Sequence record: DRR723986_2443
Reading direction: 5' to 3' (one strand)
Length of the DNA stretch: 22,109 nt
The notes under the pieces were generated by a model, which worked only from the letters and a program-made list of their open reading frames with translations, searched no databases and was not told the DNA's origin. This document shows positions 2,089 through 21,989 of this stretch, piece by piece. A program made the translations under genes and the position numbers. Position 1 is the stretch's first letter, and each line of letters opens with the position of its first letter.

Positions 2089-2104
2089 GATAGTAAAATA
2101 CAGT

Positions 2105-6820: not shown

Positions 6821-6828
6821 GGAGTTTC

Positions 6829-8571
6829 CTAATGGGGGTGGTAGTCTTTTGAAAGCTTTGCTTTGAGGCTTTTCTGATATTTGTTTTGCCAGTGCGATAG
6901 CGCGCGCCGTGTCGCTATCAAGGTGATGAGGGCCAAGCTAGCTATGGCAATCCAGAAGTCAGCGCCGATGCCGCCAACCACGCCAATGGGTGAGAAAATG
7001 ATATATTGTGCCGCAATTGCCGCCACCAGAATGATGGCTACCGGCACCGAATATTTCCAAGGCGTCATATCAACGGCGGGTGCAGTTTTGTCTTTGGCGG
7101 GTGCGTCTAGTGGCCGCCAATAGCCAACAGCCAGCATGATAGATACTTCGATGGTAAACAATATCGCATAGATATGGATGAAGTTGATATCCACCACCCA
7201 AATGAATTTCAGTGTACCGTATGCGACCACGTGAAAGACAATGGCAATTTTAGCACCCAGTGCTGGCACGCGGTGGGCGAACAAGCCGATGATAACGACC
7301 GCAATAATCGGTATGTTATAGAAGCCAGTGAAAATACGGATGATTTGCCATAACCCCTCGGGTGCGCGGGCGAGTAGGGGGGCCACCACAAAAGATAACA
7401 GGGCGATGACAATACTGGCGATTTTTGCGATGCGGATCAGTTTTTCATCACTGATTTTTGACTTTGCCAGCGGTGCATAAACATCCAGCGTAAACAAGGT
7501 GGCAGCACTGTTTAAGAGCGAGTTGAACGAGCTGAAAACCGCTCCCAGTAACACTGCGAGGAAAAACCCGGACAAATATACTGGCATCACATCAGCAACC
7601 AGTTGCGGATATGCCAGATCAATGGTGGCGAGGCCGGGGCCATATAAATGGAAGGCAATGACGCCGGGAATGAGCATCAGGATGGGTACAAACAGTTTGA
7701 AGAAGCCTGTCAGCATGACGCCCTTTTGGCCCTCTGCCAATGATTTGGCCCCTAGTGTGCGCTGAATCACATATTGATTGGTGCCCCAGTAAAATAGGTT
7801 GGCGAAAATCATCCCGGTAAACAGGGTACCAAACGGCGTTGGGTCACTGTCGCTGCCCACTGCGTTTAGCTTGTGGGTGTTTTCGGTCATCAGTGTTGAA
7901 ACACCGGCAAAGAACTGACCATCGCCCAATGCTATCAACCCGAAATAGGGCACCAGCAACCCAATAACCAAAAGGCCGATGCCGTTGATGGTGTCAGAAA
8001 CAGCGACAGCCCTCAGGCCGCCAAATACGGCGTAAATGGAACCGATAACGCCGATGCCAACAATGGTGACCACAAGGCTTTCGGTGAACGACATGCCGGT
8101 AAGGGCAGGCACATCAAACAGCCGCAAAACTGCGAGCGACCCTGAATATAAAACCGATGGAATGGTAATAAGACCGTAGCCAAGCAGGAACAGTACAACT
8201 GTCATGCGTCGTACATCATCATCGAAGCGGTTTTTGAGAAACTCGGGTAATGTGGTGAAAGCCCCCGCAAGGTAACGGGGCAGAAACACCAATGCCATAA
8301 TGATGATGGCGAAACCGGCAGTTACCTCCCATGCCATGCTAGACATGTTGAAGCCGTAGGCGGAACCATTGAGGCCGATGAGTTGCTCGGCAGATAGGTT
8401 GGTCAGCAGCATAGAGCCAGCGATAAAAACCCCGGTGAGGCCGCGTCCCGCCAAAAAATAGCCTTCTGCCGTGTCAACAGTGCCCTTGGTTTTCTGGTAT
8501 GAAATCCATGCCACAAGCGCCATGAGAAGCGCAGCGCTGGCGACTGTGAATATCAGGTTGGCATCAGACAC
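6829..8571 (-). CDS. Solute:sodium symporter (SSS) family transporter, YidK-like
   Basis: GYFLAGRGL, SMLLTNLSAEQLIGLNG, FGGLRAVAVSD, FYWGTNQYVIQRTLGAKSLAEGQKG, FSSFNSLLNSAATLFTLDVY; many hydrophobic helices; GTG start with RBS overlapping the upstream gene's end. Confidence 0.93.
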   Translation of the reverse strand: MSDANLIFTVASAALLMALVAWISYQKTKGTVDTAEGYFLAGRGLTGVFIAGSMLLTNLSAEQLIGLNGSAYGFNMSSMAWEVTAGFAIIIMALVFLPRYLAGAFTTLPEFLKNRFDDDVRRMTVVLFLLGYGLITIPSVLYSGSLAVLRLFDVPALTGMSFTESLVVTIVGIGVIGSIYAVFGGLRAVAVSDTINGIGLLVIGLLVPYFGLIALGDGQFFAGVSTLMTENTHKLNAVGSDSDPTPFGTLFTGMIFANLFYWGTNQYVIQRTLGAKSLAEGQKGVMLTGFFKLFVPILMLIPGVIAFHLYGPGLATIDLAYPQLVADVMPVYLSGFFLAVLLGAVFSSFNSLLNSAATLFTLDVYAPLAKSKISDEKLIRIAKIASIVIALLSFVVAPLLARAPEGLWQIIRIFTGFYNIPIIAVVIIGLFAHRVPALGAKIAIVFHVVAYGTLKFIWVVDINFIHIYAILFTIEVSIMLAVGYWRPLDAPAKDKTAPAVDMTPWKYSVPVAIILVAAIAAQYIIFSPIGVVGGIGADFWIAIASLALITLIATRRALSHWQNKYQKSLKAKLSKDYHPH

Positions 8572-8576
8572 GCTGG

Positions 8577-9791
8577 TTATCCTTCCAAGCCAAGCAGGGC
8601 GGAAAGGCCTTTAGTTTCAGCTGCGAACTCGCGAATGCCCACCGGTGTACCTGATTTGACAGAGCGCTCGGCTGCCGCACCGATAACTACCGACCATAGT
8701 CCGTCTAGAACCGTCGCTGCTTGTGTTTCCCTGCCCAAAAGACGGTCAACGAAAGCGATATGTTCCATATAGGTGGCGCCGCTATGGCCGCTTTCCTCAA
8801 TGAAACGGGCATAATGGGGTTCTGTTTTGCGGCTCAGGCCCGGCTCTGCTTTTTCGATCAGCAAGTCGCAGGCAAGGGGTGTTTCTGCCTGTATGTCAGC
8901 TTTTTCGGTGGCGCTAAGGCGACCCTGATCGCCGCAAATAACTAAATCTTCCTGAAAGTTTGGGCAGAACATATTTAAAGTGAAAGTGCCGCGTGTGCCA
9001 TCCTCATAATCGATAACCACAGCGGCGTTATCAAGGATGTCTGATTCTTGGCCGTCATGAGAAAAGTCAGTAAAATTAACCGTTTGCGAGCCAGAGGCAT
9101 AAACACGAATTGGTTTTGCACCCGCAAAAAGTGTGATCAGGTCAAAGTAGTGACAACACTTTTCAACCAATGTGCCACCTGACTTTTCAGAGAATTTGTT
9201 CCACTGTCCCACCTTGTCGAGAAACGGTGGCCTATGCTCGCTGAGGCTTATTGTTTTTACATCACCCAGCGCCTTGCGCTCTAAAGCCTCAAAGATGGCT
9301 TCGCTGTAGATTGGCTTGTATCGGTATTGCAGGCCAATTTGTATCGGGGCGGCATAACCGTCAGCGATCTTGCATATTTCCACGGCGTCCACGCAAGTGG
9401 TCGCCATGGGCTTTTCCAACAGTATCGGTTTGCCGGATTTTACTGCCACTTTCAAAACATCAAGGTGCGTGTGGTTCGGTGTGCAAATGATCAGCGCGTC
9501 GACATTCGGGTCAGTGCAAGCCTCCGTGAGGGACGTATGCACAATAAGGTCGCGGTCGCAGTAGCTGGCGAACTCGCGTTTGGCAACTTCGATGCTCTCC
9601 GATTGTGTATCATAGATACCGTGGACTTGGGCGCGCCCTTCCAATTCCGTCACCCGCATATGTTCTTGACCGATCATGCCGGTACCAATGACATTGAACC
9701 TGAAAGCGGCATCCGGGCGTTTGAAAATGTGCCGGTCTTCGGCACGGATATAGTCTATCGCCGGGGAGCGCTCGAATGGTCGCAATCTCAT
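8577..9791 (-). CDS. sqgA: Gfo/Idh/MocA-fold protein; probable NAD+-dependent sulfoquinovosidase (GH188, SqgA-like)
   Basis: Rossmann GTGMIG, CTPNHTH, LLEKP; GLQYRY (Tyr156); EHRPPFLDK (R187-x3-L191-x-K193, the spacing I recall for the SqgA sulfonate-binding residues); GGTLVEKCCHYFDL; GHSGATY (His336); RBS GAGGGG. Confidence 0.75.
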   Translation of the reverse strand: MRLRPFERSPAIDYIRAEDRHIFKRPDAAFRFNVIGTGMIGQEHMRVTELEGRAQVHGIYDTQSESIEVAKREFASYCDRDLIVHTSLTEACTDPNVDALIICTPNHTHLDVLKVAVKSGKPILLEKPMATTCVDAVEICKIADGYAAPIQIGLQYRYKPIYSEAIFEALERKALGDVKTISLSEHRPPFLDKVGQWNKFSEKSGGTLVEKCCHYFDLITLFAGAKPIRVYASGSQTVNFTDFSHDGQESDILDNAAVVIDYEDGTRGTFTLNMFCPNFQEDLVICGDQGRLSATEKADIQAETPLACDLLIEKAEPGLSRKTEPHYARFIEESGHSGATYMEHIAFVDRLLGRETQAATVLDGLWSVVIGAAAERSVKSGTPVGIREFAAETKGLSALLGLEG

Positions 9792-9933: not shown

Positions 9934-10542
9934 CTAGTCGAGCGGGCTGGTGATTGTTGTGGTGCCGTCTTCGGTGGAAAAATCAAGCAGGCCAATGTGT
10001 TGTATATTTTCATGGAAGTCAGCGAACGGCGTCAAAGTAACTAAGTTTTGCCGCTGTGGACCGGTTGCTATAGCGTGCATTCTCTCAATCCAGGACGAAA
10101 GGGTCGCATCGTTTACGAAAATATTCCGGTGAGGGATGCACCAACTGGCTGCACATACGTCTGCCAGGCCTGGTAACAGCCCCTGCAGAAATGGACGTCC
10201 ATCAGCCATTTGGCGCGAAACCAAAAGACTGTTGGCGGCTAATGCGGCCTCGAGACTAATCGGCTTCTTTTTCATTGATTGCCACCAGTGCAGCAAAGCC
10301 AAAGGCATGCCCATGTTGCCGTTGGGAAAAAGACTGGGAGTTGGTGCTAGTGCTTCCAGGCACAAGCAAACTGCTGCCGGGCCGATAACGTTGATATCAG
10401 CCCATTTTAGCGACAGAGCTTGGTGCTCTGTTATTACTTCTTTGGCGGCAATTTGCTTTTGACCACAACAGAGCGCCAGAAATAATTTATCCTCTGGTAA
10501 GCTCGAATGACATTCTATTTCTAGATTGGTTTGCTTATTCAT
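9934..10542 (-). CDS. Degenerate glutathione S-transferase-fold protein
   Basis: GST-like segments LEALAPTPSLFPNG, QMADGRPFLQG...PGLADVC (N-capping box/hydrophobic staple region) and LSSWIERMHA; canonical N-terminal GSH-binding motifs not recognisable. Confidence 0.55.
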   Translation of the reverse strand: MNKQTNLEIECHSSLPEDKLFLALCCGQKQIAAKEVITEHQALSLKWADINVIGPAAVCLCLEALAPTPSLFPNGNMGMPLALLHWWQSMKKKPISLEAALAANSLLVSRQMADGRPFLQGLLPGLADVCAASWCIPHRNIFVNDATLSSWIERMHAIATGPQRQNLVTLTPFADFHENIQHIGLLDFSTEDGTTTITSPLD

Positions 10543-10722: not shown

Positions 10723-10750
10723 AATAAAAAGCCGGAATAAACCCGGCTTT
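10723..10750 (-). terminator. Rho-independent terminator of the lyase-hydantoinase A-B operon
   Basis: Inverted repeat AAAGCCGG (10728-10735) / CCGGCTTT (10743-10750), 7 nt loop, minus-strand TTTTTATT tail, 22 nt after the stop at 10773. Confidence 0.75.
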
Positions 10751-10772: not shown

Positions 10773-12632
10773 TTACCAGCTTGGTGGGGTTGGTGCTTCA
10801 AGACCGGTTTCTGCTTTGCAGTTGGCGCGAATGGCCGCCATGTCAGGCCCATAGTTAAATATCTCGCCGGTCACCTGTGTTTTGGCAAGCTCCGCGCGCT
10901 TTGCTTTTGTAGCTGCAGCATCAACGCTTCCGTCTGCAGCAATTTTTACGCCGTAGTTATCAAAGGCACCTTCCTTTGAAACCAAGCCCTGCTTAACTTC
11001 CAGCGCCACCAAATCAGCGTCGCGCTCTAGCGGGTTGCCCCATCCGCCGCCGCCCCATGTGATGTAATCCAGCTCGTCGCCTTCAAATACATCAACCCGG
11101 TCGCATTTGGAGGCCAACACTTCTTCAGTGCCGTCAGCTCGTCGCAGAATTTTGGTGGACCGTGCACCAGGCTCGCCGCCGTTCACGCCCCAAGGGTAGG
11201 TGAACCAACGGTCATCATGAATGGAGACCGTGCCTTTGTTGAGGAACTGATAGGTCATCAAAATACCATTGCCGCCGCGGTTAAGCCCTGCGCCGCCACT
11301 ATCAGGGATTGAGGTATAATCCGTGATGCGCATGGGGAAGTACCGTTCCAGGAATTCGTTGGGAACGTTGGTGAAACCGGGCCAGAGGCTGTGACCGTCA
11401 GGGCCGTCGCCCCACGGCCGGCCGGGAATGCCGCCGAAGCCGATTTGGAACAACTGGAACCATTCGCCGCTATCTTTGTCAAAGCCCGAGAACATCAGAT
11501 GCGGGCTGGACGAGAAGCCTGCAGCATTCAGGAACTCCGGCTGGCCTTGGCCAAGTAATCCACCGAGAATATCAAAGATTCGTCCCAGTGCGTGGGTTCT
11601 GCATGACAGGGCGGCAGGGAAGTTTGGCTTAAGCAGACTACCCTGCGGAATGCGCACATCCACAAGGTCGTAGAAGCCATCGTTGAACATAACCTGCGGG
11701 TCAAACACCATGACCATGTAGATGCCAAAGAACATTTTGAACATATTTTCGTTCAGGTAAAAGTTAATTGAACCAACAGCTTGTGGGTCTGTTCCATCAA
11801 AATCGAGAATGACAACTTCGCCTTCTCGCCACATAGTGCATTTAATTTTGTAGGGCCCAAAGCCACGGCCATCATCGCAGATATAGTCTTCAAAGCTAAC
11901 TTTGTCCTCGCTGACGGCGGTGTTGATTAAATGGCCCATCGCGCGTTTGTTGCGCGCCAGTAGCTCGTCAGTTGCGGAGGCGAAAAAGTCATCCCCAAAA
12001 CGCTCACAAATTTCGATTACGCGTTTTTCCGCTACCCGGCAGCTGGCAACAATGGCCAGCAAGTCAGCCCTACACCATTCCGGCATGCGAACTTGATGCA
12101 GAACCAAAGTCAGGATGTCTTCCTGAAGTTCGTCTTTCTTAAACAGTTTGATTGGTGGAATTCGCACACCTTCTTCGAAGATGCTGGTGGCGTCTGTCGG
12201 CATGCTGCCCGGCACCTTGCCGCCAATGTCGGTCATGTGGCCGAACATACAAGCCCAGCTAACCAACCGACCTTTGACGAATATGGGCCGGATGATCAAC
12301 CAATCATTATTGTGCGAAACCGCCCCTTCGCAAGAGTAGGGGTCTGCGAGCCAAATCATGTCGCCTTCTTCAATGTCGCCATCATAGCCGTTCAGGAAAC
12401 CGTCGATGAAACTGCCAAATTGGCCAACCACCATCAATCCTTCGCGGTCTGCGATCAGAGGAAATGCGTCGCCTTGTTCGCGAATACCCGGGCTCATGGC
12501 TGTGCGGAATAATGTTGCATCCATTTCTTCGCGTGCGTTTCTCAGCGCATTCTCAATGATATCAAGGGTGATTGTATCCACTGCAGTTTTTGCAAATGGG
12601 GTGGTATTTGTTTCAATGATTGTTGCGGGCAT
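10773..12632 (-). CDS. Hydantoinase B/oxoprolinase family subunit (ATP-dependent lactamase beta subunit, caprolactamase CapB-like)
   Basis: TLDIIENALRNAREEMD, RTAMSPGIREQGD, DPY...SHNND, GHMTDIGGKVPGS, EEGVRIPP, PDSGGAG..RGGNG, GGGGWGNPLERD; RBS AAGGGGAGG. Confidence 0.93.
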   Translation of the reverse strand: MPATIIETNTTPFAKTAVDTITLDIIENALRNAREEMDATLFRTAMSPGIREQGDAFPLIADREGLMVVGQFGSFIDGFLNGYDGDIEEGDMIWLADPYSCEGAVSHNNDWLIIRPIFVKGRLVSWACMFGHMTDIGGKVPGSMPTDATSIFEEGVRIPPIKLFKKDELQEDILTLVLHQVRMPEWCRADLLAIVASCRVAEKRVIEICERFGDDFFASATDELLARNKRAMGHLINTAVSEDKVSFEDYICDDGRGFGPYKIKCTMWREGEVVILDFDGTDPQAVGSINFYLNENMFKMFFGIYMVMVFDPQVMFNDGFYDLVDVRIPQGSLLKPNFPAALSCRTHALGRIFDILGGLLGQGQPEFLNAAGFSSSPHLMFSGFDKDSGEWFQLFQIGFGGIPGRPWGDGPDGHSLWPGFTNVPNEFLERYFPMRITDYTSIPDSGGAGLNRGGNGILMTYQFLNKGTVSIHDDRWFTYPWGVNGGEPGARSTKILRRADGTEEVLASKCDRVDVFEGDELDYITWGGGGWGNPLERDADLVALEVKQGLVSKEGAFDNYGVKIAADGSVDAAATKAKRAELAKTQVTGEIFNYGPDMAAIRANCKAETGLEAPTPPSW

Positions 12633-12646
12633 TGGTCGTCCTCCCC

Positions 12647-14701
12647 TTATGCTGTTGGATTGATGAGAATATTACCGTAGGTATCCATTTCGCCCACATG
12701 GTCAGGCAGGATAACCGCGGTACTGTCCATTTCGGTAACGATACACGGACCCGGTATTCGGTCGCCTTTTTCAAGCTTCGACCGGTCATAAATAGCTGCA
12801 TCATATTTCTCACCGCCGCACCACATGGTGTGATCGCTGATCTTTGCTTGGGATGGGTCGTTATCGCCTTCACCGACTTTGATTGCGGGCATTTCCGCAC
12901 CTTTGCCAAGAGCAATGGCCCGCAGGTTCACAATCTCATGAACCACATCAAGGTTAAATGTGAATAAGCGTTTATGTTCATCGTCAAAGGATGCTTGCAG
13001 CGCCTTTACCCCGTTTCCAGCTTCAAAGTCCTCGATGTTAATGGGCAGGTCAACCTCAAAGCCCTGACCGGAATAGCGTACACCGGCTTCAAAGGTGATG
13101 ATTTGCTTGTCGCGTGGCACACCTTCGTCTTCTAGTTCCTTAACCACTGTTTCGCGCATACTTGCGAGCCACTCAGCAACTTCACTATCATTGGTTTGTC
13201 TGACGGTACGATTGAAGGATCGCGCGTGTTCGTAGCGCATTTGGGTTGTTGCGTCGCCTGTTGCACACAGCACGCCGGGACTAACCGGAACCACCACTGG
13301 GTAAGAACCCATGAGTCTGCCAACAGCGTTGGAATGCAAAGAGCCCGCGCCGCCAAAACCCATAAGGGCAAAGTCGCGGGGGTCGTAGCCTTGCTGCACC
13401 GAGACAAGCCGAAGCGCACCAAACATATTCTCATTGGCGATATCGATAATGCCCTGAGCAGCTTCTTGTATGGTAACGCTAAGAGCGTCAGCGATGGTTT
13501 GAACGGCAGCAGTTGCGGCCGCAACGTCCAATTTGAAGGATCCGCCAAGCAAGGCCGCTGGCAAGTTTCCGAGCACAACATGGGCATCAGTAACCGTTGG
13601 TACTTCGCCGCCTTTACCGTATGCAGCAGGGCCAGGGACAGCACCGGCTGATTCAGGGCCCACCCGCAGCGCACCGGTTAATTCAGGTACGTGGGCAATA
13701 GAGCCGCCGCCTGCACCCACTGTTTTAACATCTAGCGATGATGCGCGTACGGTGAGGTGGCCAACACTGGTTTCACGACGAAGACGTGGCTCGCCGTTTT
13801 CAATAAGCGCCACGTCGGTAGAGGTGCCGCCAACGTCCAGCGTGAGAATGTTTTTCAGGCCAGCATTACGTGCCGACCACAGTGCGCCGGTTACACCGCC
13901 AGCTGGACCGGACATCAGCAAGTTTACCGGGTGGCCCTCTGACTTTTCTGAGCCCATCAAGCCGCCATCTGAGCGTAGCAGGTTGATCCGGCCTTCCATG
14001 CCCAATTTTCTCAGCTCGCCCCGTAGGTTTGATACATACATTGCCATAATCGGGCGCACAAGTGAGTTGGCAACTGAGGTAAGTGCGCGCTCGTATTCTT
14101 GCATTTCCGGCAACACTTCATGGCTCAGGGTTATGGGCAGGTCAGGGAAAACCTCGCGGGCGATTTCTGCAATCTCGGTTTCATGCACGCCGTTGACATA
14201 ACTGTTAATGGTGCAAATGGTTAGCGCTTCAATGCCCTCAAGCTTTAAGCTTTCAAGCGCGGCTTTGGCTTGAGCGCGGTTAACCGGCTTAACCACACCG
14301 CCGTTGGCGTCCAAGCGTTCGTCAATTTCAACGGTGCATTCAAGCGCGGCCAGCGGTACGGGCTTTGGCCATGTGATCCAGGCGGCCAGGCCGCCGGGTA
14401 CTAAAGAGCGCGCAACCTGCAGAATTTGGCGGTAACCTTCGGTGACAACCAGCCCTGTTTTTGCGCCTTTACCTTCCAATACCGCATTGGTGGCAACAGT
14501 GGTGCCATGTAGGAACTGTTCAATGTCAGAGGGTTTAATACCTGCCTGGTCACAAATCGCCTTTGTGCCGTTTATTACGGCCTCTGAGGGGTCATGCGGC
14601 GTGCTTGGCACCTTATCACGCCATGTTTCACCGGTTGTTTCTTCGATAAGTAGAAGGTCTGTGAACGTGCCCCCCACGTCTACGCCCAGTCTGTATGGCA
14701 T
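12647..14701 (-). CDS. Hydantoinase A/oxoprolinase family subunit (ATP-binding alpha subunit, caprolactamase CapA-like)
   Basis: LGVDVGGTFTD, HGTTVATNAVLE, EYER, SGPAGG, DVGGTSTDV, VGAGGGSIA, VGPESAGAVPGPA, FGGAG; RBS AAGGGAGAG. Confidence 0.94.
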   Translation of the reverse strand: MPYRLGVDVGGTFTDLLLIEETTGETWRDKVPSTPHDPSEAVINGTKAICDQAGIKPSDIEQFLHGTTVATNAVLEGKGAKTGLVVTEGYRQILQVARSLVPGGLAAWITWPKPVPLAALECTVEIDERLDANGGVVKPVNRAQAKAALESLKLEGIEALTICTINSYVNGVHETEIAEIAREVFPDLPITLSHEVLPEMQEYERALTSVANSLVRPIMAMYVSNLRGELRKLGMEGRINLLRSDGGLMGSEKSEGHPVNLLMSGPAGGVTGALWSARNAGLKNILTLDVGGTSTDVALIENGEPRLRRETSVGHLTVRASSLDVKTVGAGGGSIAHVPELTGALRVGPESAGAVPGPAAYGKGGEVPTVTDAHVVLGNLPAALLGGSFKLDVAAATAAVQTIADALSVTIQEAAQGIIDIANENMFGALRLVSVQQGYDPRDFALMGFGGAGSLHSNAVGRLMGSYPVVVPVSPGVLCATGDATTQMRYEHARSFNRTVRQTNDSEVAEWLASMRETVVKELEDEGVPRDKQIITFEAGVRYSGQGFEVDLPINIEDFEAGNGVKALQASFDDEHKRLFTFNLDVVHEIVNLRAIALGKGAEMPAIKVGEGDNDPSQAKISDHTMWCGGEKYDAAIYDRSKLEKGDRIPGPCIVTEMDSTAVILPDHVGEMDTYGNILINPTA

Positions 14702-14776
14702 GTCTTACTCTCCCTTGTTCCGCAGGCTTTGATAGTGCGCGCGAAATGTCTGTTTATTTAAGTCATGGCTACTTGA

Positions 14777-15730
14777 TTATGAGGCAGCCCCAGATTCTGG
14801 AAATCCGCCAGCCTGGCTAACCATAGCTGGCGGTGTGCGGCCCAGAACTGTCTCCGCCCAATTGGCCAGTTTAATCATTTCATCCAAGTCTACCGCTGTT
14901 TTAACGCCGGATTCGTGCAGCAGATATAATAGGTCTTCTGTGCCAATATTACCGGTGGCTTTCGGTGCAAACGGGCACCCGCCGAGACCAGCAACCGATG
15001 CGTCAAGTGTTGCAACGCCAGCCTGATAAGCGGCCCAAGCATTGGCAAGACCTGTATTGCGCGTGTTGTGGAAGTGAGCGCGCAGTGGCATGTTGGGCAA
15101 GCGTTCTTTAATTTTTGATATTAGTTCTGTAACCCGCAGCGGTGAGCCTACACCAATGGTGTCAGCAATAGCGATTTCTCGCGGCTGGGCTTCGGCGATG
15201 CTTTCTGCCATAGCAACAACGCGAGATTGGTCAATGCGGCCTTCAAACGGGCAGCCAAATGAAGCCGAGATGGTCGCTTGGGCAGACATGCCTTCTGCCT
15301 TTGCCATGCGGATCATATCTTTTGTGACGTCCACAGACTCTTGCGAGGTTTGGCCTTGGTTTTTTTCTGCGAATGTATCCGACGCTATGGCAACACAGCC
15401 CACTTCATCAATGCCGCGTTTATTGCCTTCGCGGGTAGCAAAGGCACGCAGTAATCCGCGTTTATTAAGAATAAGACCGATGTATGTGACATCGTCGCGG
15501 TCACTTAGCCCGGCAATAACATCCTCTGCATCCGCCATTTGCGGTACCCGCTTGGGGTGGACAAAGCTTGCCACCTCTATGCGGCGTATACCTGCATTGA
15601 CTGCGCCATTGATCATGCGCAGCTTGTCAATGGTCGAGAATACGATTTTCTCGTTTTGCAGGCCGTCCCTTGGGCCAACTTCCAAAACTTCTACAGAAGA
15701 TAACGGTTGCGAATTACTGGTTACAGTCAT
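14777..15730 (-). CDS. HMG-CoA lyase family (DRE-TIM) acyl-CoA lyase; (R)-citramalyl-CoA lyase-like possible
   Basis: EVGPRDGLQNE, FGCPFEG, IADTIG, HFHNTRNTG metal ligands, GLGGCPFAPKATGN; not in a liu (leucine catabolism) context. Confidence 0.88.
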   Translation of the reverse strand: MTVTSNSQPLSSVEVLEVGPRDGLQNEKIVFSTIDKLRMINGAVNAGIRRIEVASFVHPKRVPQMADAEDVIAGLSDRDDVTYIGLILNKRGLLRAFATREGNKRGIDEVGCVAIASDTFAEKNQGQTSQESVDVTKDMIRMAKAEGMSAQATISASFGCPFEGRIDQSRVVAMAESIAEAQPREIAIADTIGVGSPLRVTELISKIKERLPNMPLRAHFHNTRNTGLANAWAAYQAGVATLDASVAGLGGCPFAPKATGNIGTEDLLYLLHESGVKTAVDLDEMIKLANWAETVLGRTPPAMVSQAGGFPESGAAS

Positions 15731-15757
15731 CTGTTGCCTAACTCGAAATTACGAAAA

Positions 15758-15820
15758 AATGTATACAATCCATGTTAGCAATTGTATACAAAAATTCTAT
15801 TAAAAGAATCGTATACCAAT
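15758..15820. promoter_or_regulatory. Three TGTATACA-type palindromic operator sites in the lyase / CoA-transferase divergent promoter
   Basis: AATGTATACAAT (15758-15769), ATTGTATACAAA (15781-15792), degenerate ATCGTATACCAAT (15808-15820); matches the TTGTATACAA type of GntR/FCD operator known for MdcY and MatR. Confidence 0.75.
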
Positions 15821-15863
15821 ATAAACACTATTGCTGTCGAGATAAATCATTGGGAGACATCAC

Positions 15864-17060
15864 GTGACGAATGCCGCAAACTTCGGTGCTCTAAAGGGCC
15901 TTAGGATGATCGAATTGGGGCAGCTGATTGCAGGGCCGTTTTGCGGTCAATTGATGGCTGATCATGGCGTTGAAGTGATTAAGGTAGAAGCGCCGGGCAT
16001 AGGTGATCCCATGAGAAAATGGGGCCAAAGCGCGCCTCTTTGGTGGCCCGTAGTGTCTCGCAACAAAAAATGTGTAACCCTTAACCTGCGAGAAAAGCCT
16101 GGGCAGGATATCTTAAAAGAGATGGTCAAAAAGACCGATTTTTTGTTGGAGAATTTTCGTGCGGGCACCATGGAAAAATGGGGCCTGTCTTACGACGTGT
16201 TAAAAAAAATAAACCCACGCTTGATAATGATTAGGGTTTCAGGGTTCGGGCAAACCGGGCCATATGCAAAAAAAGCAGGCTATGGCTCTATTGGTGAAGC
16301 AATGGGCGGTATGCGCAACTTGGCGGGGGACCCTGCAACACCGCCTAGCCGCATTGGCCTCTCTATTGGTGACTCGCTTGCGGCAACATACGCGTGCCTT
16401 GGGGCTTTGATGGCCCTGCGGCACCGGGATCAAACCGGTGAAGGGCAGGTGGTAGATTCTGCAATATACGAAGCCGTTCTTGCTATGATGGAATCGGTGG
16501 TGCCGGAATATACCGAGCAGGGTTTCGTTCGTGAGCGTACCGGCTCAGTTCTGCCAAAGGTTGCGCCCTCAAACGCCTACCCAACAAAGGACGGCGATAT
16601 TCTAATCGCTGCCAACCAGGACACGGTTTTCCGGCGATTGGCCACTGCGATGGGTAAAGCAGAAATGGCGGATGACGAGAAATATGCTACCCATCAAGCG
16701 CGCGGTGAATGCCAAGACGAACTTGATGAAATGATAACGCAGTGGACCAAAGGCTTCACCAGTGATGAGATGCAGTCACTTATGGATGAGCACGGTGTGC
16801 CTGCCGGGAAAATATTCAAAGCGCCGGATATGCTGAATGACCCACAATTTGAAGCGCGCGAAGCGATTGTGAAAGTTGATCACCCGTCGTATGATAAGCT
16901 GTATATGCAAAATGTTTTTCCGAAGCTTTCGCAGACGCCCGGCGAGATTCGCTGGGCTGGGCCAACGGATTTAGGCCAGCATAATAGTGAAGTATACGGT
17001 GAAATTTTGGGCAAAACTGACGCTGAGATTGAAGAAATGCGAAACGCTGGAACCATATAA
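15864..17060 (+). CDS. Family III (CaiB/BaiF) CoA-transferase; succinyl-CoA:(R)-citramalate CoA-transferase-like possible
   Basis: LKGLRMIELGQLIAGPFCG, EVIKVE..GDPMR, RNKKCVTLNL, ENFRAGTMEKWGL, SGFGQTGPY, catalytic Asp in IGDSLA, LGQHNSEV; GTG start with RBS GGGAG. Confidence 0.92.
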   Translation: MTNAANFGALKGLRMIELGQLIAGPFCGQLMADHGVEVIKVEAPGIGDPMRKWGQSAPLWWPVVSRNKKCVTLNLREKPGQDILKEMVKKTDFLLENFRAGTMEKWGLSYDVLKKINPRLIMIRVSGFGQTGPYAKKAGYGSIGEAMGGMRNLAGDPATPPSRIGLSIGDSLAATYACLGALMALRHRDQTGEGQVVDSAIYEAVLAMMESVVPEYTEQGFVRERTGSVLPKVAPSNAYPTKDGDILIAANQDTVFRRLATAMGKAEMADDEKYATHQARGECQDELDEMITQWTKGFTSDEMQSLMDEHGVPAGKIFKAPDMLNDPQFEAREAIVKVDHPSYDKLYMQNVFPKLSQTPGEIRWAGPTDLGQHNSEVYGEILGKTDAEIEEMRNAGTI

Positions 17061-17075
17061 GGCTTTATTCATTTA

Positions 17076-17723
17076 ATGACTGATCCGGACCTTAAGCTAA
17101 CTCTTGACGAAGATTACAAGGCCGCAGGCTTTGGCGGACAGTTGGGGTTTGGTACAGCGCCTGTGCTGTTGATAATAGACATGTGCATGGCGTACCTTGA
17201 CCCGGCAGCGCCTTTATATGCAGGTATGGAAGCTGAGTACCAGCAGATTGAAAAACTGTTGAAGGCTTTTCGAAGTGCAGGCCGCCCCGTTGTTCATACG
17301 CGGGTAGAGTTTGGTGCTGATGGCGCTGATGGTGGGCTATTCTATAAAAAAGTATCGGCACTAAAATGTTTTGATAAGGGTAGCCCCTTAGCTCTTCCGC
17401 CCGAAGGGTTGGTGCCCGAAGACGGCGAAGTGGTGGTTACTAAACAATATGCCAGTGCTTTCTTTGGTACATCATTGGCTAGCACTCTGCGCGCTATGGG
17501 GTGTGACAGCGTTGTTATTACCGGGGTTAGCACCTCAGGTTGCGTGCGGGCGAGTGCTCTTGATACGCTTCAAAATGGTTTTATCCCGTTAGTTGTTGAA
17601 GACGCCTGCGGTGACCGAGATGCAGGGGTTCACAAGGCGAACATATTCGATCTGAAAGCTAAGTATGCTGACATAGTCTCAACGGATGATATTCTTGCGA
17701 AAGTTAATTCTGGCTGGGATTGA
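17076..17723 (+). CDS. Isochorismatase/cysteine hydrolase family amidohydrolase, maleamate amidohydrolase (NicF)-like
   Basis: Triad Asp35 (IIDM), Lys123 (TKQYASAFFGTSL), Cys156 (STSGCVRAS); GFG.AP N-terminus, APLYA, GDRD...H.ANIFDL..KYAD resemble NicF as recalled. Confidence 0.85.
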   Translation: MTDPDLKLTLDEDYKAAGFGGQLGFGTAPVLLIIDMCMAYLDPAAPLYAGMEAEYQQIEKLLKAFRSAGRPVVHTRVEFGADGADGGLFYKKVSALKCFDKGSPLALPPEGLVPEDGEVVVTKQYASAFFGTSLASTLRAMGCDSVVITGVSTSGCVRASALDTLQNGFIPLVVEDACGDRDAGVHKANIFDLKAKYADIVSTDDILAKVNSGWD

Positions 17724-17785
17724 GTGTATTTATTCTTAACGTGAACTTTGAAGTAAAGCAGCCTTAGTTTTTTGCTCTGTATGGC

Positions 17786-18439
17786 TTAAACGTCTTCATC
17801 AGCATATGTATTCACAAATTTTCTTTGTGCTGAAATAATGTGCGTTTTCATCACGGATGATGCCCACGCACCATCGCGAGATTCGAGCGCATTGATAATG
17901 TCCAGGTGGTGGTCATTGCTGCGCTGGAGCTCCTGCCGGGTATATTGACGGGCTGTTTGCGCAATAAGCGGTGGCTGGACAATTTGGGCAAGGGTATCTG
18001 CCAGTGTTCTGCTTTGTGAAGCGCTAATCAAAATTTGATGAAATGCTTTATTCTCGACCAAAAACACTTCTACTACGGGCGTATTCTTATCATCCAGCAT
18101 GGTTTGTATTTTGCCGTGGATTTTTTTTAGCTCGGTAATTTCATCTTTGGTGATGTGTTGCGCGGCCCGTTCTACTACTATCGATTCTAGTATTGAGCGT
18201 AATTCAAAGATGTCTTTAATATCTTCCACTGTCCATTGATTAACAAAAACCCCTTGATTTCGGTGGGTCACCACATAACGGTCTGTTGCCAATTGGCGCA
18301 GGGCATCTCTTACGGGGGTTCTGCTAACGCCGCACTTTTCTACCAATTCCCCTTCTTTAAGATGAGTTCCTGGCTGGTATCCGCCGTTTAAGATGTTTTC
18401 GCGGATGATGTTATATGCCTTTTCCGTCGCTTTAGACAT
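17786..18439 (-). CDS. GntR family transcriptional regulator, FCD (FadR/VanR-type) effector domain
   Basis: wHTH AYNIIRENILNG...PG..LKE..L....GVSRTPVRDAL..L...RNQGVFV; FCD residues FELRSILE, NKAFH, DHHLDIINAL...D, KTHI. Confidence 0.95.
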   Translation of the reverse strand: MSKATEKAYNIIRENILNGGYQPGTHLKEGELVEKCGVSRTPVRDALRQLATDRYVVTHRNQGVFVNQWTVEDIKDIFELRSILESIVVERAAQHITKDEITELKKIHGKIQTMLDDKNTPVVEVFLVENKAFHQILISASQSRTLADTLAQIVQPPLIAQTARQYTRQELQRSNDHHLDIINALESRDGAWASSVMKTHIISAQRKFVNTYADEDV

Positions 18440-18443
18440 TTAG

Positions 18444-18487
18444 TTTGTATACTCCACCGCAGAAAATTTATCTTTAATGTATACAAT
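18444..18487. promoter_or_regulatory. Two TGTATAC operator sites between gntR and the TonB-dependent receptor
   Basis: TTTGTATACT (18444-18453, overlapping the gntR RBS) and AATGTATACAAT (18476-18487), identical to the 12-mer at 15758-15769. Confidence 0.75.
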
Positions 18488-18630
18488 TATCCAAAATATG
18501 CAATATAGTGCCTTCGCGGATAACTCTATACGTCGAAGCATCGCATAGCTTGCGGGTTTTGTCTGGTAACAAATGTTTGCTGGCTAGTGGGTAGATGAGA
18601 ATACGCCGTTGGGAATATGAGGAGGGGACT

Positions 18631-21219
18631 ATGACTTCAAAGATTTTTCGCACGCGCACCACTGCGGGTGTTTCTGGTATTGCTGTACTAACAGCAGCTT
18701 TTTTCGCATCACCCGCGATAGCGCAACAAAGTGATGACGAAGGTTTCTCGCTGGAAGAAATTGTTGTGACAGCGCGTCGCCGCTCGGAAAGCTTGAAAGA
18801 TGTGCCGGGTACTGTGTCAGTAATCTCTGCATCAACTATTCGGGGTGCTGGCGTGGAACGCGCAGAAGATTTCATCGCACTTACTCCTGGTGTCACAATG
18901 GTGAATGCTGCCGAGGTTGGAGACACGCAGGTTAACATTCGCGGCATTAACGGTGCCCGCGATGCCGAAAATAGCTTTGCCTATATTCTAGACGGTATTC
19001 TTTATACCAACCCCGCAGCGTTTAACCGCGAATATACCAACTTGTCCCAGATTGAAATATTCAAAGGGCCGCAGGGCGCCATATACGGCCGGAATGCGGC
19101 CGCAGGCGCAATTATCGTTAAAACGACCACGCCAGACAATGAAGTTGCCGTCAACGGCACCGCAAGTTTTGCAGAAGATAACAGCTATTTGTTGAAAGCA
19201 GCTGTGTCAGGGCCGATTGTTGAAGACGAAATGTTTTTCCGCTTGTCGGCTGACTGGCGCAAATCTGATGGTTTTTTCAGGAATAGTTTCCAAAATAATG
19301 CCAAAATTGTTGATCGCTTCGAAGGCTACAACATTAACGGTCGTTTGATTTGGGAAGCTTCAGAAAACCTGACTGTCGATACGAAAATGCGCTACGGGCA
19401 AGTAGATGCAGGGTCGATCACTTTTAACTCTACATTTAATCTGCCAGTTTTTGCCGCGGGTACTAATACGCCTGCCGCATTTCAGGATGTGAACGACTTT
19501 GATTTCCTGTTCCAGTCCAATATTGCCTCTGACAATGATCAAGAATCTTTCGAGGTTTCTACCAAATTTGATTATGACCTGGACGGTATGGTTTTAACCG
19601 GTTGGGTTTTGTATAGCGATATTGATAACAACCTTATTTCAGACGGTACGTCCGCGGCTTTTGGTTTTTATGCACCTGATGCAGCGTGCCAACAATCTAT
19701 TGCAGACCTTAATGCTGCAGGCCAAACGCTACTTGCGCCTCAGTTTATTGGTCAAACCCCAACGGGGGTCATTTTCGATCCTAATGGTTCGTTCCTTGGC
19801 GCCTATACGCCAAGTACATGTGACGGTATCCAGGAGCAGCTTCGCAATCAAAGAGACCTTAGTGCTGAACTGCGCCTGGCCTCAGATACCGACGGTGACA
19901 TGCGATGGATGATCGGTGCCTACTTCCTTGATATTGACCGCCAGGTTGGTGTGTCTTTGAACAGAGACGGTGGTGCAGACCCAATTAGGGGGCTATACCA
20001 ACCAACAGGGCCAAATGCCACGGCTTCGCTTATTCATGATCAGTTTGATAGCACAGTTTTTGCCGTTTTCGGACAGCTTCAGTATGACGTGAATGAAGAT
20101 GTCGAACTTTCTTTGGCGTTGCGTTACGACAACGAAAACCGGGAAGTGTCCAGCCTTGTGCCTTTTGGTGCAACGCAGTCAGTCATTGATCTGGATTTTG
20201 ATGGTGTTTTTAATGATCCACTCAATCCCGCACTTTCAAGTTTGATTAATTCAACCGGGACAATTCCAGACCAGGAACAAACGTTCTCGGAGTTTCAGCC
20301 TAAAGTCGCGCTAACATGGGATGCAGATGAAGACCTTACTCTGTTCGCCAGTTGGGGTGTTGGCTTTAAGGCCGGTGGTTTCAATAATTCAGGCAGTGCA
20401 GCCACGGTAAATATCTTCAACAATAGTTTCATTAACGGCGGCATCGGTATTAACTTTGCTGACGACCTTGGTGTAGTGCTTCCAGTGATCACGGACGATT
20501 ATGAAGAAGAAACATCAAGCGCATTTGAGGCAGGCTTCAAATCCAACTTGTTTGATGGCCGGGTGCAGCTGTCAGGTTCGGCTTACTATACTAAAGTAAG
20601 TGATATGCAATTCTTCGAATTCTTCGTTGGTACGTTTGGTTTGTTGCGTGTTGTTTCTAACATTGATGAAGTTGAGCTTTACGGCGGCGAACTGGGTGTC
20701 ACCGTTCATCTGGACGAGCACTTCCGGGTATTTGGAGGTGCGAACTTTACTGAAAGCGAAATTCAGGAAAACAGTTCACGGCCTGACACGGTTGGCAACA
20801 AATCACCCTACACGCCTGACTATACAATTAACGCCGGTGCAGACTTTGACTATCCGATTACGGAATCGCTCACCTTGTTTGGCCGGGTCGATGCACAGTT
20901 TATTGGTGCTACCTGGTTCCATACTGTGCAGGAAGGCCAGCGGTCTACCATATTCCAGCCTCTGTTTGAGCTTGGCTTTGGTGCCGGTGCCGGAGCACTT
21001 GGTATAGCAGACTTCTCGAATGCACAGCGTGATAGTTATCACATCGTTGACATCCGGGTTGGTATACGCGGCGAAGGTTGGGCGCTTACGGCGTTTGGTT
21101 CAAATATTACTAACCAAAACTATCTGGAAGAAGTGATCCCTGCACCTGAGTTTGGCGGGTCGTTTAATCATCCGGGCGCTTTAAGTCGTTATGGGGTTGA
21201 GGTTTCTTTTAACTTCTAG
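18631..21219 (+). CDS. TonB-dependent outer-membrane receptor
   Basis: Signal peptide ending AIA-Q, TonB box LEEIVVTARRR, plug motifs NIRG, DG, IEIFKGPQGAIYGRNAAAGAI, barrel GFKAGGFN, C-terminal YGVEVSFNF. Start placed at ATG 18631 because GAGGAGGGG directly precedes it. Confidence 0.95.
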   Translation: MTSKIFRTRTTAGVSGIAVLTAAFFASPAIAQQSDDEGFSLEEIVVTARRRSESLKDVPGTVSVISASTIRGAGVERAEDFIALTPGVTMVNAAEVGDTQVNIRGINGARDAENSFAYILDGILYTNPAAFNREYTNLSQIEIFKGPQGAIYGRNAAAGAIIVKTTTPDNEVAVNGTASFAEDNSYLLKAAVSGPIVEDEMFFRLSADWRKSDGFFRNSFQNNAKIVDRFEGYNINGRLIWEASENLTVDTKMRYGQVDAGSITFNSTFNLPVFAAGTNTPAAFQDVNDFDFLFQSNIASDNDQESFEVSTKFDYDLDGMVLTGWVLYSDIDNNLISDGTSAAFGFYAPDAACQQSIADLNAAGQTLLAPQFIGQTPTGVIFDPNGSFLGAYTPSTCDGIQEQLRNQRDLSAELRLASDTDGDMRWMIGAYFLDIDRQVGVSLNRDGGADPIRGLYQPTGPNATASLIHDQFDSTVFAVFGQLQYDVNEDVELSLALRYDNENREVSSLVPFGATQSVIDLDFDGVFNDPLNPALSSLINSTGTIPDQEQTFSEFQPKVALTWDADEDLTLFASWGVGFKAGGFNNSGSAATVNIFNNSFINGGIGINFADDLGVVLPVITDDYEEETSSAFEAGFKSNLFDGRVQLSGSAYYTKVSDMQFFEFFVGTFGLLRVVSNIDEVELYGGELGVTVHLDEHFRVFGGANFTESEIQENSSRPDTVGNKSPYTPDYTINAGADFDYPITESLTLFGRVDAQFIGATWFHTVQEGQRSTIFQPLFELGFGAGAGALGIADFSNAQRDSYHIVDIRVGIRGEGWALTAFGSNITNQNYLEEVIPAPEFGGSFNHPGALSRYGVEVSFNF

Positions 21220-21263
21220 GCGATGAGGCATCTACGCTATCTGCTGGATAGTATCTAAATCAT

Positions 21264-21297
21264 AAAAAAAGGGCACCTTGCTGGGTGCCCTTTTTTT
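21264..21297. terminator. Bidirectional Rho-independent terminator between the convergent TBDR and nrtR genes
   Basis: A7-GGGCACC-TTGCTG-GGTGCCC-T7 perfect inverted repeat. Confidence 0.92.
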
Positions 21298-21320
21298 AAT
21301 TTCTATTTTGCTTTGTTTGT

Positions 21321-21989
21321 TTACCGAATGTTCTTAACGCCTTCGCGATCAATAACCCGGTACAGCATTGCGGGGCGATGTGGCCCGCTAGAATATTTCT
21401 TGCCGGTCGCTTCTATAATATTCAAAGAGAATATCCATTTACGGAAGTTACGTTTATCGCGCGGCTTGTCTGTTGCCTTTTCGTATACATCCTGAAGATA
21501 CGACAAAGTAAACTCATCTGGCATTAGCTTTAAGCCAACCGTTGAATATTCCATTTTAGCGGCAAGCCGTTTCCTCGCCTTTTCAAGAATCTCAGCATGA
21601 TCAAACGATAACTTTGGCAAGTCATCAACCGCGAACCATTCGGCCTCAACGGCATCTGTGCCGGCTTCAAGCGTAACATTTTTGCCCGGAATGAGCGCAT
21701 AGTACGCCGCGCTTATGACCCGTTCACGAGGGTCACGATCAACCCGACTAAATGTATAAAGCTGTTCAAGATAAACATCTTTAATACCCGCTTCTTCCTC
21801 AAGCTCTCGTGCGGCACATTCGTCGAGTGTTTCGTCCATTTTTACGAAACCACCAGGAAGTGCCCATTGGCCTTTAAAAGGCTCCATGCCACGTTTGATA
21901 AGAAGAACTTTAAGTGCTCGATCCAAGACAGTTAAAATCACGATGTCCGTGGTGACTGCCGGATGTGGATAATCATATGTATATGTCAT
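21321..21989 (-). CDS. nrtR: NrtR family Nudix-related transcriptional regulator (Nudix + C-terminal wHTH)
   Basis: YPHPAVTTDIVI, LKVLLIKR..EPFKGQWALPGGF, YLEQLYTFS..DRDPRERVIS.AY, L.FDH, EFTLS.LQ.VYE, DKRNFRK, HRPAMLY. Confidence 0.9.
   Translation of the reverse strand: MTYTYDYPHPAVTTDIVILTVLDRALKVLLIKRGMEPFKGQWALPGGFVKMDETLDECAARELEEEAGIKDVYLEQLYTFSRVDRDPRERVISAAYYALIPGKNVTLEAGTDAVEAEWFAVDDLPKLSFDHAEILEKARKRLAAKMEYSTVGLKLMPDEFTLSYLQDVYEKATDKPRDKRNFRKWIFSLNIIEATGKKYSSGPHRPAMLYRVIDREGVKNIR

Follow-up and report, generated by a model that had tools for sequence, protein, structure and literature searches.

Bacterial cyclic-imide breakdown, as known from Blastobacter, relies on an imidase followed by a half-amidase, and in Chloroflexus (R)-citramalate is cleaved by a succinyl-CoA:D-citramalate CoA-transferase together with an R-citramalyl-CoA lyase. 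The creatinine route through N-methylhydantoin uses an N-methylhydantoinase of the HyuAB type and then an N-carbamoylsarcosine amidase. The lower pathway of nicotinate breakdown in fungi employs the imidase HxnM and the amidase HxnN (PMC9304392). The locus analysed here lies in a stretch of DNA of 22,109 nucleotides from sequence record DRR723986_2443 (the whole stretch is called the window below) and comprises seven genes, coding for both subunits of an ATP-dependent hydantoinase/lactamase (HyuA and HyuB), a lyase of the 3-hydroxy-3-methylglutaryl-CoA (HMG-CoA) lyase family, a family III CoA-transferase, an isochorismatase-family amidase, a GntR-family regulator and a TonB-dependent receptor. 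These genes form a real, tightly co-regulated unit common to many Alphaproteobacteria. Judged from the sequences, the most likely role of the unit is to take up a small nitrogen-containing ring compound, open the ring at the expense of ATP, remove the nitrogen and split the carbon chain to central metabolites. A more specific proposal, to which we give roughly even chances, is that of a substrate-inducible catabolic regulon in which a five-membered cyclic imide or ureide would pass through a half-amide, an alkylmaleate- or alkylmalate-type acid and a CoA ester to acetyl-CoA and a 2-oxo acid.

Gene identities in the window were assigned from its list of open reading frames (ORFs) and from searches with Pfam and NCBIfam models. 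The features of the unit are the following.

10773..12632, minus strand: hyuB, B subunit of an ATP-dependent hydantoinase/lactamase (619 amino acids; Pfam Hydantoinase_B, 478 bits)
12647..14701, minus strand: hyuA, A subunit, ATP-binding, with an actin-like fold (684 amino acids; Pfam Hydant_A_N, Hydantoinase_A, Hydant_A_C)
14777..15730, minus strand: HMG-CoA-lyase-family lyase, heading the lyase-hyuA-hyuB unit (317 amino acids; Pfam HMGL-like)
15864..17060, plus strand: family III (CaiB/BaiF) CoA-transferase (398 amino acids, GTG start; Pfam CoA_transf_3, 395 bits)
17076..17723, plus strand: isochorismatase-family cysteine amidohydrolase (215 amino acids; Pfam Isochorismatase, 119 bits)
17786..18439, minus strand: GntR-family regulator with an FCD ligand domain (217 amino acids; Pfam GntR and FCD)
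18595..21219, plus strand: ORF of the TonB-dependent outer-membrane receptor, its likely true start being the ATG at 18631 (Pfam Plug and barrel)
10728..10750, minus strand: terminator-like hairpin just 3' of hyuB (8-pair stem with 5 GC pairs; a T-run follows when read on the minus strand)
21263..21298, no strand: strong bidirectional terminator-like hairpin in the gap between the receptor gene and a convergent NrtR-like gene (16 pairs, T-runs on both sides)

All seven genes lie where an earlier reading of this DNA, here called the original prediction, had put them (10773-21219), and their families are backed by both Pfam and NCBIfam. The lyase and hyuA genes are separated by 75 nt, hyuA and hyuB by 14 nt, and the transferase and amidase genes by 15 nt; from strands and spacing, four transcription units were recognised (lyase-hyuA-hyuB, transferase-amidase, gntR and the receptor gene), in agreement with the original prediction. 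The terminator-like hairpin at 10728..10750 would mark the end of the lyase-hyuA-hyuB unit and that at 21263..21298 the right-hand boundary. The window resembles Kordiimonas, its HyuA being 89-96% identical to those of Kordiimonas and related metagenome-assembled genomes.

The distribution of the set was followed in a HyuA-seeded sample, in which the best 80 loci were kept from 600 matched stretches (557 confirmed); 54 of the 80 were long loci, in which hyuA was flanked by 8 kb or more on either side, and identity thresholds were applied. A receptor gene may be missed where it lies beyond the flank of the locus, and the ORF caller was crude, with antisense artefacts in GC-rich loci (ORF-clustering families 7 and 11). 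All of the long loci carried hyuB (54/54), and the gene neighbourhoods showed the set to be co-conserved, as all seven genes were present in 26/54, the five enzymes in 31/54, the lyase with the transferase in 36/54 and receptor orthologues (40-67% identity) in 30/54. Neither lyase nor transferase was found in 17/54, nine of which kept the amidase. The set recurs in Sphingomonadales, Caulobacterales, Kordiimonadaceae, Parvularculaceae and some Gammaproteobacteria with its gene order shuffled between orders, which points to selection on the set rather than inherited synteny; the lyase gene is nearly always directly upstream of hyuA in one operon, and the transferase gene adjoins that of the amidase. 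Clustering of the ORFs of the 80 loci revealed no eighth gene near the seven in frequency. In a sample of 400 scored genomes from the class holding the Gammaproteobacteria, a cluster-type lyase was found in seven, one of which (locus L107) had the full set including the receptor, with ExbB/ExbD and the operator.

The operator is present in four copies in the window.

15758..15769, no strand: operator copy 1 (AATGTATACAAT), in the divergent region between the lyase and CoA-transferase genes; the same palindrome stands 5' of the lyase and CoA-transferase genes in related loci
15781..15792, no strand: operator copy 2 (ATTGTATACAAA), 23 bp from copy 1
18444..18455, no strand: operator copy 3 (TTTGTATACTCC, one core mismatch), adjoining the gntR start
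18476..18487, no strand: operator copy 4 (AATGTATACAAT), overlapping a promoter-like match at 18480-18509 for the receptor gene

Exact TGTATACA occurs at three sites in the 22-kb window (15760, 15783 and 18478), all within the two divergent intergenic regions, and a site with one mismatch at 18446. With one mismatch allowed, the count in the window alone was not significant (10 sites vs 5.9 expected; 7/100 shuffles reach 10), and it is the conservation across genomes, not this count, that marks the operator as real. At least two TGTATACA sites were found in every long locus with the GntR gene (34/34), whereas not a single one was present in any of those without it (0/20), and 75/78 sites in the long loci lay within 300 bp upstream of the start of a cluster gene, so that the earlier claim of one operator motif linking the units holds. 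The consensus, ATTGTATACAAT, is retained even where the G+C content of the genome is 65-70%; paired operators at the 23-bp spacing were seen again in L002-L004, L015, L017, L020, L023 and L038, and in L002-L004 a counterpart of copy 3 stands 13 nt from gntR. The regulator itself combines a GntR helix-turn-helix with an FCD domain, and the conserved inverted repeats in the promoters are its predicted binding sites, which places it in the GntR/FadR type. Since predicted ATTGTATACAAT operators occupy both divergent promoter regions, the regulator probably controls all four units.

Five whole genomes were scanned for exact TTGTATACAA, and seven of the nine sites fell in the cluster, the other two being inside ORFs; the scan brought no transporter or hydratase outside the cluster under the operator. 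A reversed control pattern was equally frequent genome-wide, so the motif is concentrated in the cluster rather than enriched in the genome, and in those five genomes the regulon, as predicted from the operator, appears to coincide with the cluster. The only exact operator 10-mer of G001 outside the cluster (G001:C1:2858702, locus L088) lies within its third LeuC-like gene (2857792-2859186), and is probably due to chance, as the reversed control pattern is just as frequent.

That the genes are housekeeping neighbours thrown together by chance, with HyuAB a 5-oxoprolinase, the lyase the HMG-CoA lyase of leucine breakdown and the rest unrelated, is extremely improbable. HyuAB-type enzymes do include 5-oxoprolinases, which no model used here separates, and G002 and G004 have no HMGL homologue at E<=1e-30 other than the cluster lyase. 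The set is nevertheless co-conserved in shuffled order and its operator is shared in 34/34 loci, and on these two grounds a combination of an ordinary oxoprolinase with a leucine-pathway lyase is disfavoured. Pfam searches of the window proteins found no liu genes in the unit, the context expected of a leucine-catabolic lyase, and further HMGL paralogs (36-40% identity) exist in five cluster-bearing genomes (G001, G003, G005, G008 and G009), that of G001 not itself being in a liu cluster. From these paralogs and the lack of liu genes in the unit, the cluster lyase does not appear to be simply the leucine enzyme.

The nearest relatives of the ring-opening enzyme and of the amidase bear on the type of ring. 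Window HyuA matched its three Pfam domains over the full length (282, 167 and 47 bits) and HyuB its single one (478 bits); with both subunits, all domains and genes 14 nt apart, the pair belongs to the hydantoinase/oxoprolinase A+B superfamily. Among solved structures, HyuA was closest to N-methylhydantoinase (7hk5, 471 bits), followed by caprolactamase (6yra_A, 379), acetophenone carboxylase (268) and acetone carboxylase (218), and HyuB to N-methylhydantoinase (7hk5, 216 bits) and caprolactamase B (6yra_B, 205). The NCBIfam equivalogs CapA and CapB gave 507 and 232 bits, far below their cutoffs of 1000, and no aminotransferase is present; the original prediction was thus right to regard caprolactam as an unlikely substrate, and its label 'CapAB-type' is correct for the superfamily but understated the affinity to hydantoinases (471 vs 379 bits). 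Likewise, the amidase had been called NicF-like, a similarity that was confirmed (NicF 3ot4/3uao, 138 bits), whereas its equal closeness to N-carbamoylsarcosine amidohydrolase (26st, 144 bits) had been overlooked; Ami (4l07, 119 bits) and the Arthrobacter N-carbamoylsarcosine amidohydrolase (1nba, 110 bits) followed. The Asp-Lys-Cys triad positions are kept in the alignments, and by triad and similarity the enzyme is placed, as a prediction, in the clade of N-carbamoylsarcosine amidohydrolase and NicF within the isochorismatase-like cysteine amidohydrolases. Both N-carbamoylsarcosine amidase and maleamate amidase act on H2N-CO-X-Y-COO- compounds derived from five-membered rings or their equivalents, and the nearest relatives of HyuA and amidase therefore favour a five-membered ring.

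The same relatives (N-methylhydantoinase in the case of both HyuA and HyuB, N-carbamoylsarcosine amidohydrolase in that of the amidase) would also suit a 5- or N-substituted hydantoin. HyuAB would then act as ATP-dependent hydantoinase and the amidase as N-carbamoyl-amino-acid amidase, in the manner of the creatinine/N-methylhydantoin route, and the transferase and lyase would process a side chain bearing carboxyl and hydroxyl groups, whether ahead of ring opening or after it. Accessory genes of related loci, which likewise speak for a five-membered ring in general, could be read in its favour. In 13/80 loci, two small NTF2/SnoaL-like genes (the SnoaL assignment is weak, at 26.8 bits vs a cutoff of 27) and an Asp/Glu/hydantoin-racemase-family gene stand between receptor and regulator, co-oriented with the receptor gene. 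At E<=1e-3 the only solved relatives of the racemase-like protein were hydantoin/allantoin racemases (3qvk, 72 bits), with no maleate isomerase among them. In relatives from Kordiimonas and elsewhere (L003, L009, L155, L170), amidase paralogs have as neighbours genes of the PuuE/imidase family, to which allantoinase belongs. We consider a hydantoin unlikely all the same. Its degradation would yield an amino acid, but among the conserved genes there is none for an aminotransferase, deaminase or oxidase; NicF matches the amidase almost as well as N-carbamoylsarcosine amidohydrolase does; and the LeuC/LeuD (LeuCD) paralogs that adjoin the amidase in some loci, described below, indicate a dicarboxylate. 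PuuE enzymes, moreover, include cyclic imidases as well as allantoinase (PMC11424739, PMC9304392).

Two side observations concern these accessory genes. In the Kordiimonas relatives L002-L004, about 4-10 kb downstream of hyuB, where the window has other genes, there is a second module that combines a LysR regulator with a sodium:solute symporter, another isochorismatase-family amidase and two genes of the PuuE/imidase family. In the gammaproteobacterial L110 (G371:C20), a racemase-like gene (58% identical to the sphingomonad one) accompanies EamA, lyase and transferase genes and one operator-like site, with no HyuAB; amidase-signature enzyme, alpha/beta hydrolase and extradiol-dioxygenase-like genes lie in its neighbourhood, and the locus may have a different ring-opening front end.

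The allantoin-racemase-like and PuuE-like genes of these variants would likewise agree with glyoxylate capture, in which HyuAB and the amidase release glyoxylate from an allantoin-like ureide, and the lyase and transferase work in the condensing direction (acetyl-CoA and glyoxylate to malyl-CoA to malate) as a substitute for malate synthase. The lyase-transferase pair is also found beside possible oxo-acid-releasing enzymes, such as the luciferase-like monooxygenases near it in L145-L147, where large ORFs without a family match next to the lyase are probably artefacts of the ORF caller. We hold glyoxylate capture to be very improbable, as no urease and no ureidoglycolate- or allantoate-handling genes are conserved in the set, the LeuCD partners would be left unexplained and the condensing direction is unusual for this pairing.

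The lyase scored 304 bits with the HMG-CoA lyase subfamily model NF004283 (cutoff 246) and is about 40% identical to solved HMG-CoA lyases. In an alignment to human 2cw6, with residues numbered as in the human enzyme, the equivalents of R41, D42, E72, H233, H235, C266 and N275 are all kept; model score and residues (Arg-Asp, Glu, His-x-His, Cys-loop and Asn) place it in the HMG-CoA lyase subfamily, an assignment at the subfamily level, as the scores do not tell HMG-type from citramalyl-type lyases. For the transferase, the best NCBIfam models were succinate-glutarate CoA-transferase (SUGCT; 267 bits, cutoff 750) and succinyl-CoA:mesaconate CoA-transferase (240), both below cutoff, and the best solved relatives an uncharacterised Brucella CaiB/BaiF protein (4ed9, 232 bits), SUGCT (9br7, 197) and YfdE (193).

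These relationships would agree with a six-membered hydroxy-imide, 3-hydroxy- or 3-hydroxy-3-methyl-glutarimide, for example from a hydrated 2,6-dihydroxypyridine-type ring, being converted through a glutaramate to 3-hydroxy(-3-methyl)glutarate, with SUGCT-like activation and HMG-CoA-lyase-like cleavage; the lyase keeps all the catalytic and metal residues of human HMG-CoA lyase, and SUGCT is the best named relative of the transferase. Hydroxylated piperidine-2,6-diones do occur as catabolic intermediates: when Aspergillus degrades nicotinate, an imidase opens them and an amidase then deamidates the product (PMC9304392). The lyase scores speak for the HMG type no more than for the citramalyl type. 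LeuCD-type partners act on C4-dicarboxylate (alkylmalate) skeletons, the relatives of the amidase use the shorter H2N-CO-X-Y-COO- substrates, and we know of no natural source of 3-hydroxy(-3-methyl)-glutarimide; we regard a six-membered ring as quite unlikely.

LeuC/LeuD-like genes were found in 11/122 loci examined, and these partners suggest that the acid released from the proposed five-membered ring is of the alkylmaleate/alkylmalate type. The genes leuC, leuD and amidase are contiguous in six loci (L005, L006, L066, L030, L042 and L024), and L024 has the order hyuA-hyuB-CoA-transferase-leuC-leuD-amidase under the same arrangement of GntR, operator and receptor. Four loci (L043, L042, L062 and L189) carry leuC-leuD with a second lyase (37% identical) and its own transferase. 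The in-cluster LeuC-like proteins pass LeuC models with 574-716 bits; G001 and G003 have three LeuC-like copies each, which are extra copies, and G002, G004 and G005 one each. Where the operon has none, the housekeeping LeuCD could serve. The original prediction had reasoned that, with no hydratase encoded, the substrate probably carries its hydroxyl already: the window indeed encodes no hydratase, but the LeuC/LeuD paralogs inside the operon of relatives such as L024 weaken the conclusion. As a side observation, the second lyase/CoA-transferase pair of L189 (G001:C1:1057000-1073000) lies about 20 kb from the cluster in G001, the closest complete genome, with LeuC/LeuD paralogs, a DUF1838 protein, major facilitator superfamily transporters and a 373-amino-acid methyltransferase-domain protein, whose family is seen again near HyuAB-only loci.

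On the proposed five-membered-ring pathway, the compound would cross the outer membrane by the receptor and the inner membrane by a carrier encoded outside the unit. HyuAB would open the ring at a C-N bond with ATP, giving a terminal amide or carbamoyl acid of the H2N-CO-X-Y-COO- type, from which the isochorismatase-family amidase would free ammonia (and CO2, if a ureide). What is left would be a dicarboxylate of the alkylmaleate or alkylmalate kind, such as citraconate or citramalate; an unsaturated acid would be hydrated by a LeuCD-type hydro-lyase, encoded in the operon in some relatives and presumably a housekeeping copy here. The family III transferase would then form the CoA thioester, probably from succinyl-CoA, and the HMG-CoA-lyase-family enzyme would split it into acetyl-CoA (or propionyl-CoA) and a 2-oxo acid, for example pyruvate or glyoxylate.

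The two halves of this pathway are also found apart. A less biased view was obtained by seeding with the lyase, of which homologues (E<=1e-75) were present in 33 of 401 sampled alphaproteobacterial genomes; 33 regions were examined, all but that of G002 itself, several of them from short contigs. The lyase was adjoined by the transferase in 17, HyuB in 8, HyuA in 7, the amidase in 4, GntR in 3 and the receptor in 2, so that the pairing of family III transferase and HMGL-family lyase pointed out in the original prediction is a genuine recurrent module. In 11/33 regions the pair occurred without HyuAB, one of these (L170) having HyuAB about 5 kb away, and the lyases nearest that of the window (59-61% identity, L145-L147) had a transferase partner but no HyuAB, GntR or operator. 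Conversely, of five genomes with a HyuAB locus lacking the pair, two had a cluster-type lyase elsewhere and three had none. In G010, the lyase, transferase, GntR, operators and a TonB-dependent-receptor gene (22% identical to that of the window) are on one contig and HyuAB on another. As the modules also live apart, the seven-gene regulon is best seen as a specific joining of two modules.

Such separability, together with a HyuA tree in which full and HyuAB-only loci interleave (six changes needed in a quick tree), would suit two functions under one repressor, with HyuAB and the amidase salvaging nitrogen from a lactam, hydantoin or imide, and the transferase and lyase degrading a hydroxy-dicarboxylate; in a variant, the imported compound is a conjugate, each half of which feeds one module. 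Taken together, these two versions appear distinctly unlikely, as all seven genes are under one operator wherever the GntR gene is present, the lyase gene is nearly always directly 5' of hyuA while the transferase gene adjoins that of the amidase, and there is a single receptor.

Several observations weigh against the five-membered-ring pathway. HyuAB adjoins the lyase in only 7-8/33 of the lyase-seeded regions vs 17/33 for the transferase, some contigs being short, and since three of the five genomes above have HyuAB with no cluster-type lyase, the two halves need not act on one molecule. In-cluster LeuCD copies occur in a minority of loci (11/122), and the regulon of the window encodes neither a hydratase nor an inner-membrane transporter. 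For the transferase and the lyase, the best scores were those with glutarate/HMG-type enzymes, which would suit a ring of six members (a hydroxy-glutarimide) no less than one of five. A true hydantoin would give an amino acid, which the lower pathway does not obviously use. Lastly, where the cluster lyase is the sole HMGL homologue at E<=1e-30 (G002 and G004), it may have a second role in leucine breakdown.

From the ATG at 18631, preceded by GGAGG, the receptor has a signal-peptide-like N-terminus ending AIA-QQ and a TonB-box-like EEIVVTA; with these features and its Plug and barrel domains it conforms to a TonB-dependent receptor, and none of the named siderophore, B12 or haem equivalogs of NCBIfam reached its cutoff. 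Transporter neighbours in related loci are heterogeneous (EamA in L009, L110 and L145-L147; an NMT1-like binding protein in L052) and give no clue to the substrate. A possible natural substrate is an alkyl-substituted maleimide or succinimide (methyl-ethyl-maleimide, methyl-vinyl-maleimide or hematinic acid imide), which we consider improbable as a specific identification. The receptor would scavenge the imide, HyuAB would open it, the maleamate-amidase-like enzyme would free ammonia, a LeuCD-type enzyme would hydrate the alkylmaleate, and the transferase and lyase would yield, by way of the alkylmalyl-CoA, an acyl-CoA together with a 2-oxo acid. A literature search showed that tetrapyrrole-derived maleimides are documented natural products. 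They are the monopyrrole end products of the oxidation of chlorophyll, bacteriochlorophyll, haem and bilins. No title listed by the same search concerned their breakdown by bacteria.

The remaining genes of the window were not counted as part of the unit: TauD-like, SSF, Gfo/Idh/MocA, molybdenum-hydroxylase and NrtR genes were rejected as members, having no operator and not being conserved with the set. The NrtR-like Nudix/winged-helix regulator, NAD-related, at 21321-21989 (minus strand; NF050029, 159 bits, below cutoff) is convergent with the receptor gene and is kept at the same position in Kordiimonas L002-L004 (84-85% identity), being absent from all other related loci. On the other side, past the hyuB terminator, a 202-amino-acid ORF at 9934-10542 (minus strand) has no Pfam or NCBIfam match and a 58%-identical counterpart at the same place in L001. 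An operon at 5843-9791 (minus strand) codes for a Gfo/Idh/MocA oxidoreductase, a YidK-like sodium:solute symporter (710 bits) and a TauD-family dioxygenase; this block of about 4 kb looks like an insertion or replacement, because in L001, the closest relative, the molybdenum-hydroxylase genes directly follow the hypothetical gene. In the window, the genes at 3154-5837 (plus strand) and 379-3016 code for a two-subunit molybdenum hydroxylase (2Fe-2S small and molybdenum-cofactor large subunits), a pirin and a D-aminoacylase-like amidohydrolase. No operator was seen in this region, and homologues of the small subunit (58-60% identity) occur near the HyuAB-only Novosphingobium loci L031, L035 and L051.

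If the five-membered-ring pathway is correct, it would join ATP-driven opening of a stable cyclic amide and deamidation with CoA-dependent retro-Claisen cleavage of the hydroxy-dicarboxylate so formed, a coupling not previously known. The unit is widespread: many Sphingomonadales, Caulobacterales and Kordiimonadaceae possess the full set, as does at least one genome among the 400 sampled from the class holding the Gammaproteobacteria. The sharply defined operator (for an induction reporter), the single regulator for ligand screening and the several cultured carriers, among them Blastomonas natatoria DSM 3183, Sphingorhabdus contaminans KCTC 32445, Sphingomonas flavalba and Erythrobacter sp. 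YT30 (loci L045, L054, L046 and L063), make the system tractable. Once identified, the substrate would stand as a source of nitrogen and carbon in the environment that oligotrophic bacteria scavenge by means of a dedicated outer-membrane receptor. Were the substrate a tetrapyrrole-derived imide, the unit would be the first known microbial sink for such compounds, which would explain its spread among light-exposed aquatic and leaf-surface Alphaproteobacteria.

Full-text literature searches found no characterised pathway with this gene set, in accordance with the original prediction. The creatinine/N-methylhydantoin route shares with the unit its nearest solved relatives, N-methylhydantoinase HyuAB and N-carbamoylsarcosine amidase, whereas creatinine deaminase and sarcosine oxidase or dehydrogenase are found neither in the unit nor among its conserved partners, and the unit has instead a transferase, an HMGL-family lyase, a receptor and a GntR regulon. 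With the nicotinate maleamate pathway it has in common an amidase about 40% identical to NicF (138 bits) that also matches Ami (119 bits) and has the same triad; it contains no homologues of NicC, NicX, NicD or NicE, and the Asp/Glu-racemase-family gene found in relatives resembles hydantoin racemases more than it does maleate isomerase. The caprolactam pathway (CapAB) shares an ATP-dependent two-subunit lactamase of the same superfamily, but the CapA and CapB model scores lie far below cutoff (507/232 vs 1000) and aminotransferase and dehydrogenases are missing here. The cyclic-imide pathways, that of Blastobacter and that of fungal HxnM/HxnN, follow the same course from imide to half-amide to dicarboxylate, and in some related loci genes of the PuuE/imidase family stand in for HyuAB or occur alongside it; the unit differs in its ATP-dependent HyuAB opener, its isochorismatase-family amidase and the proposed CoA-dependent cleavage, as opposed to direct entry to central metabolism. 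The Chloroflexus citramalate pair likewise combines a family III CoA-transferase with an HMGL-family lyase, a likeness at the family level only, and the LeuCD paralogs of relatives fit a citraconate/citramalate-type acid; here, in contrast, the pair is proposed to be catabolic and to operate together with amide chemistry and import across the outer membrane. The component families are all known; the novelty lies in their combination, with its regulon and its receptor.

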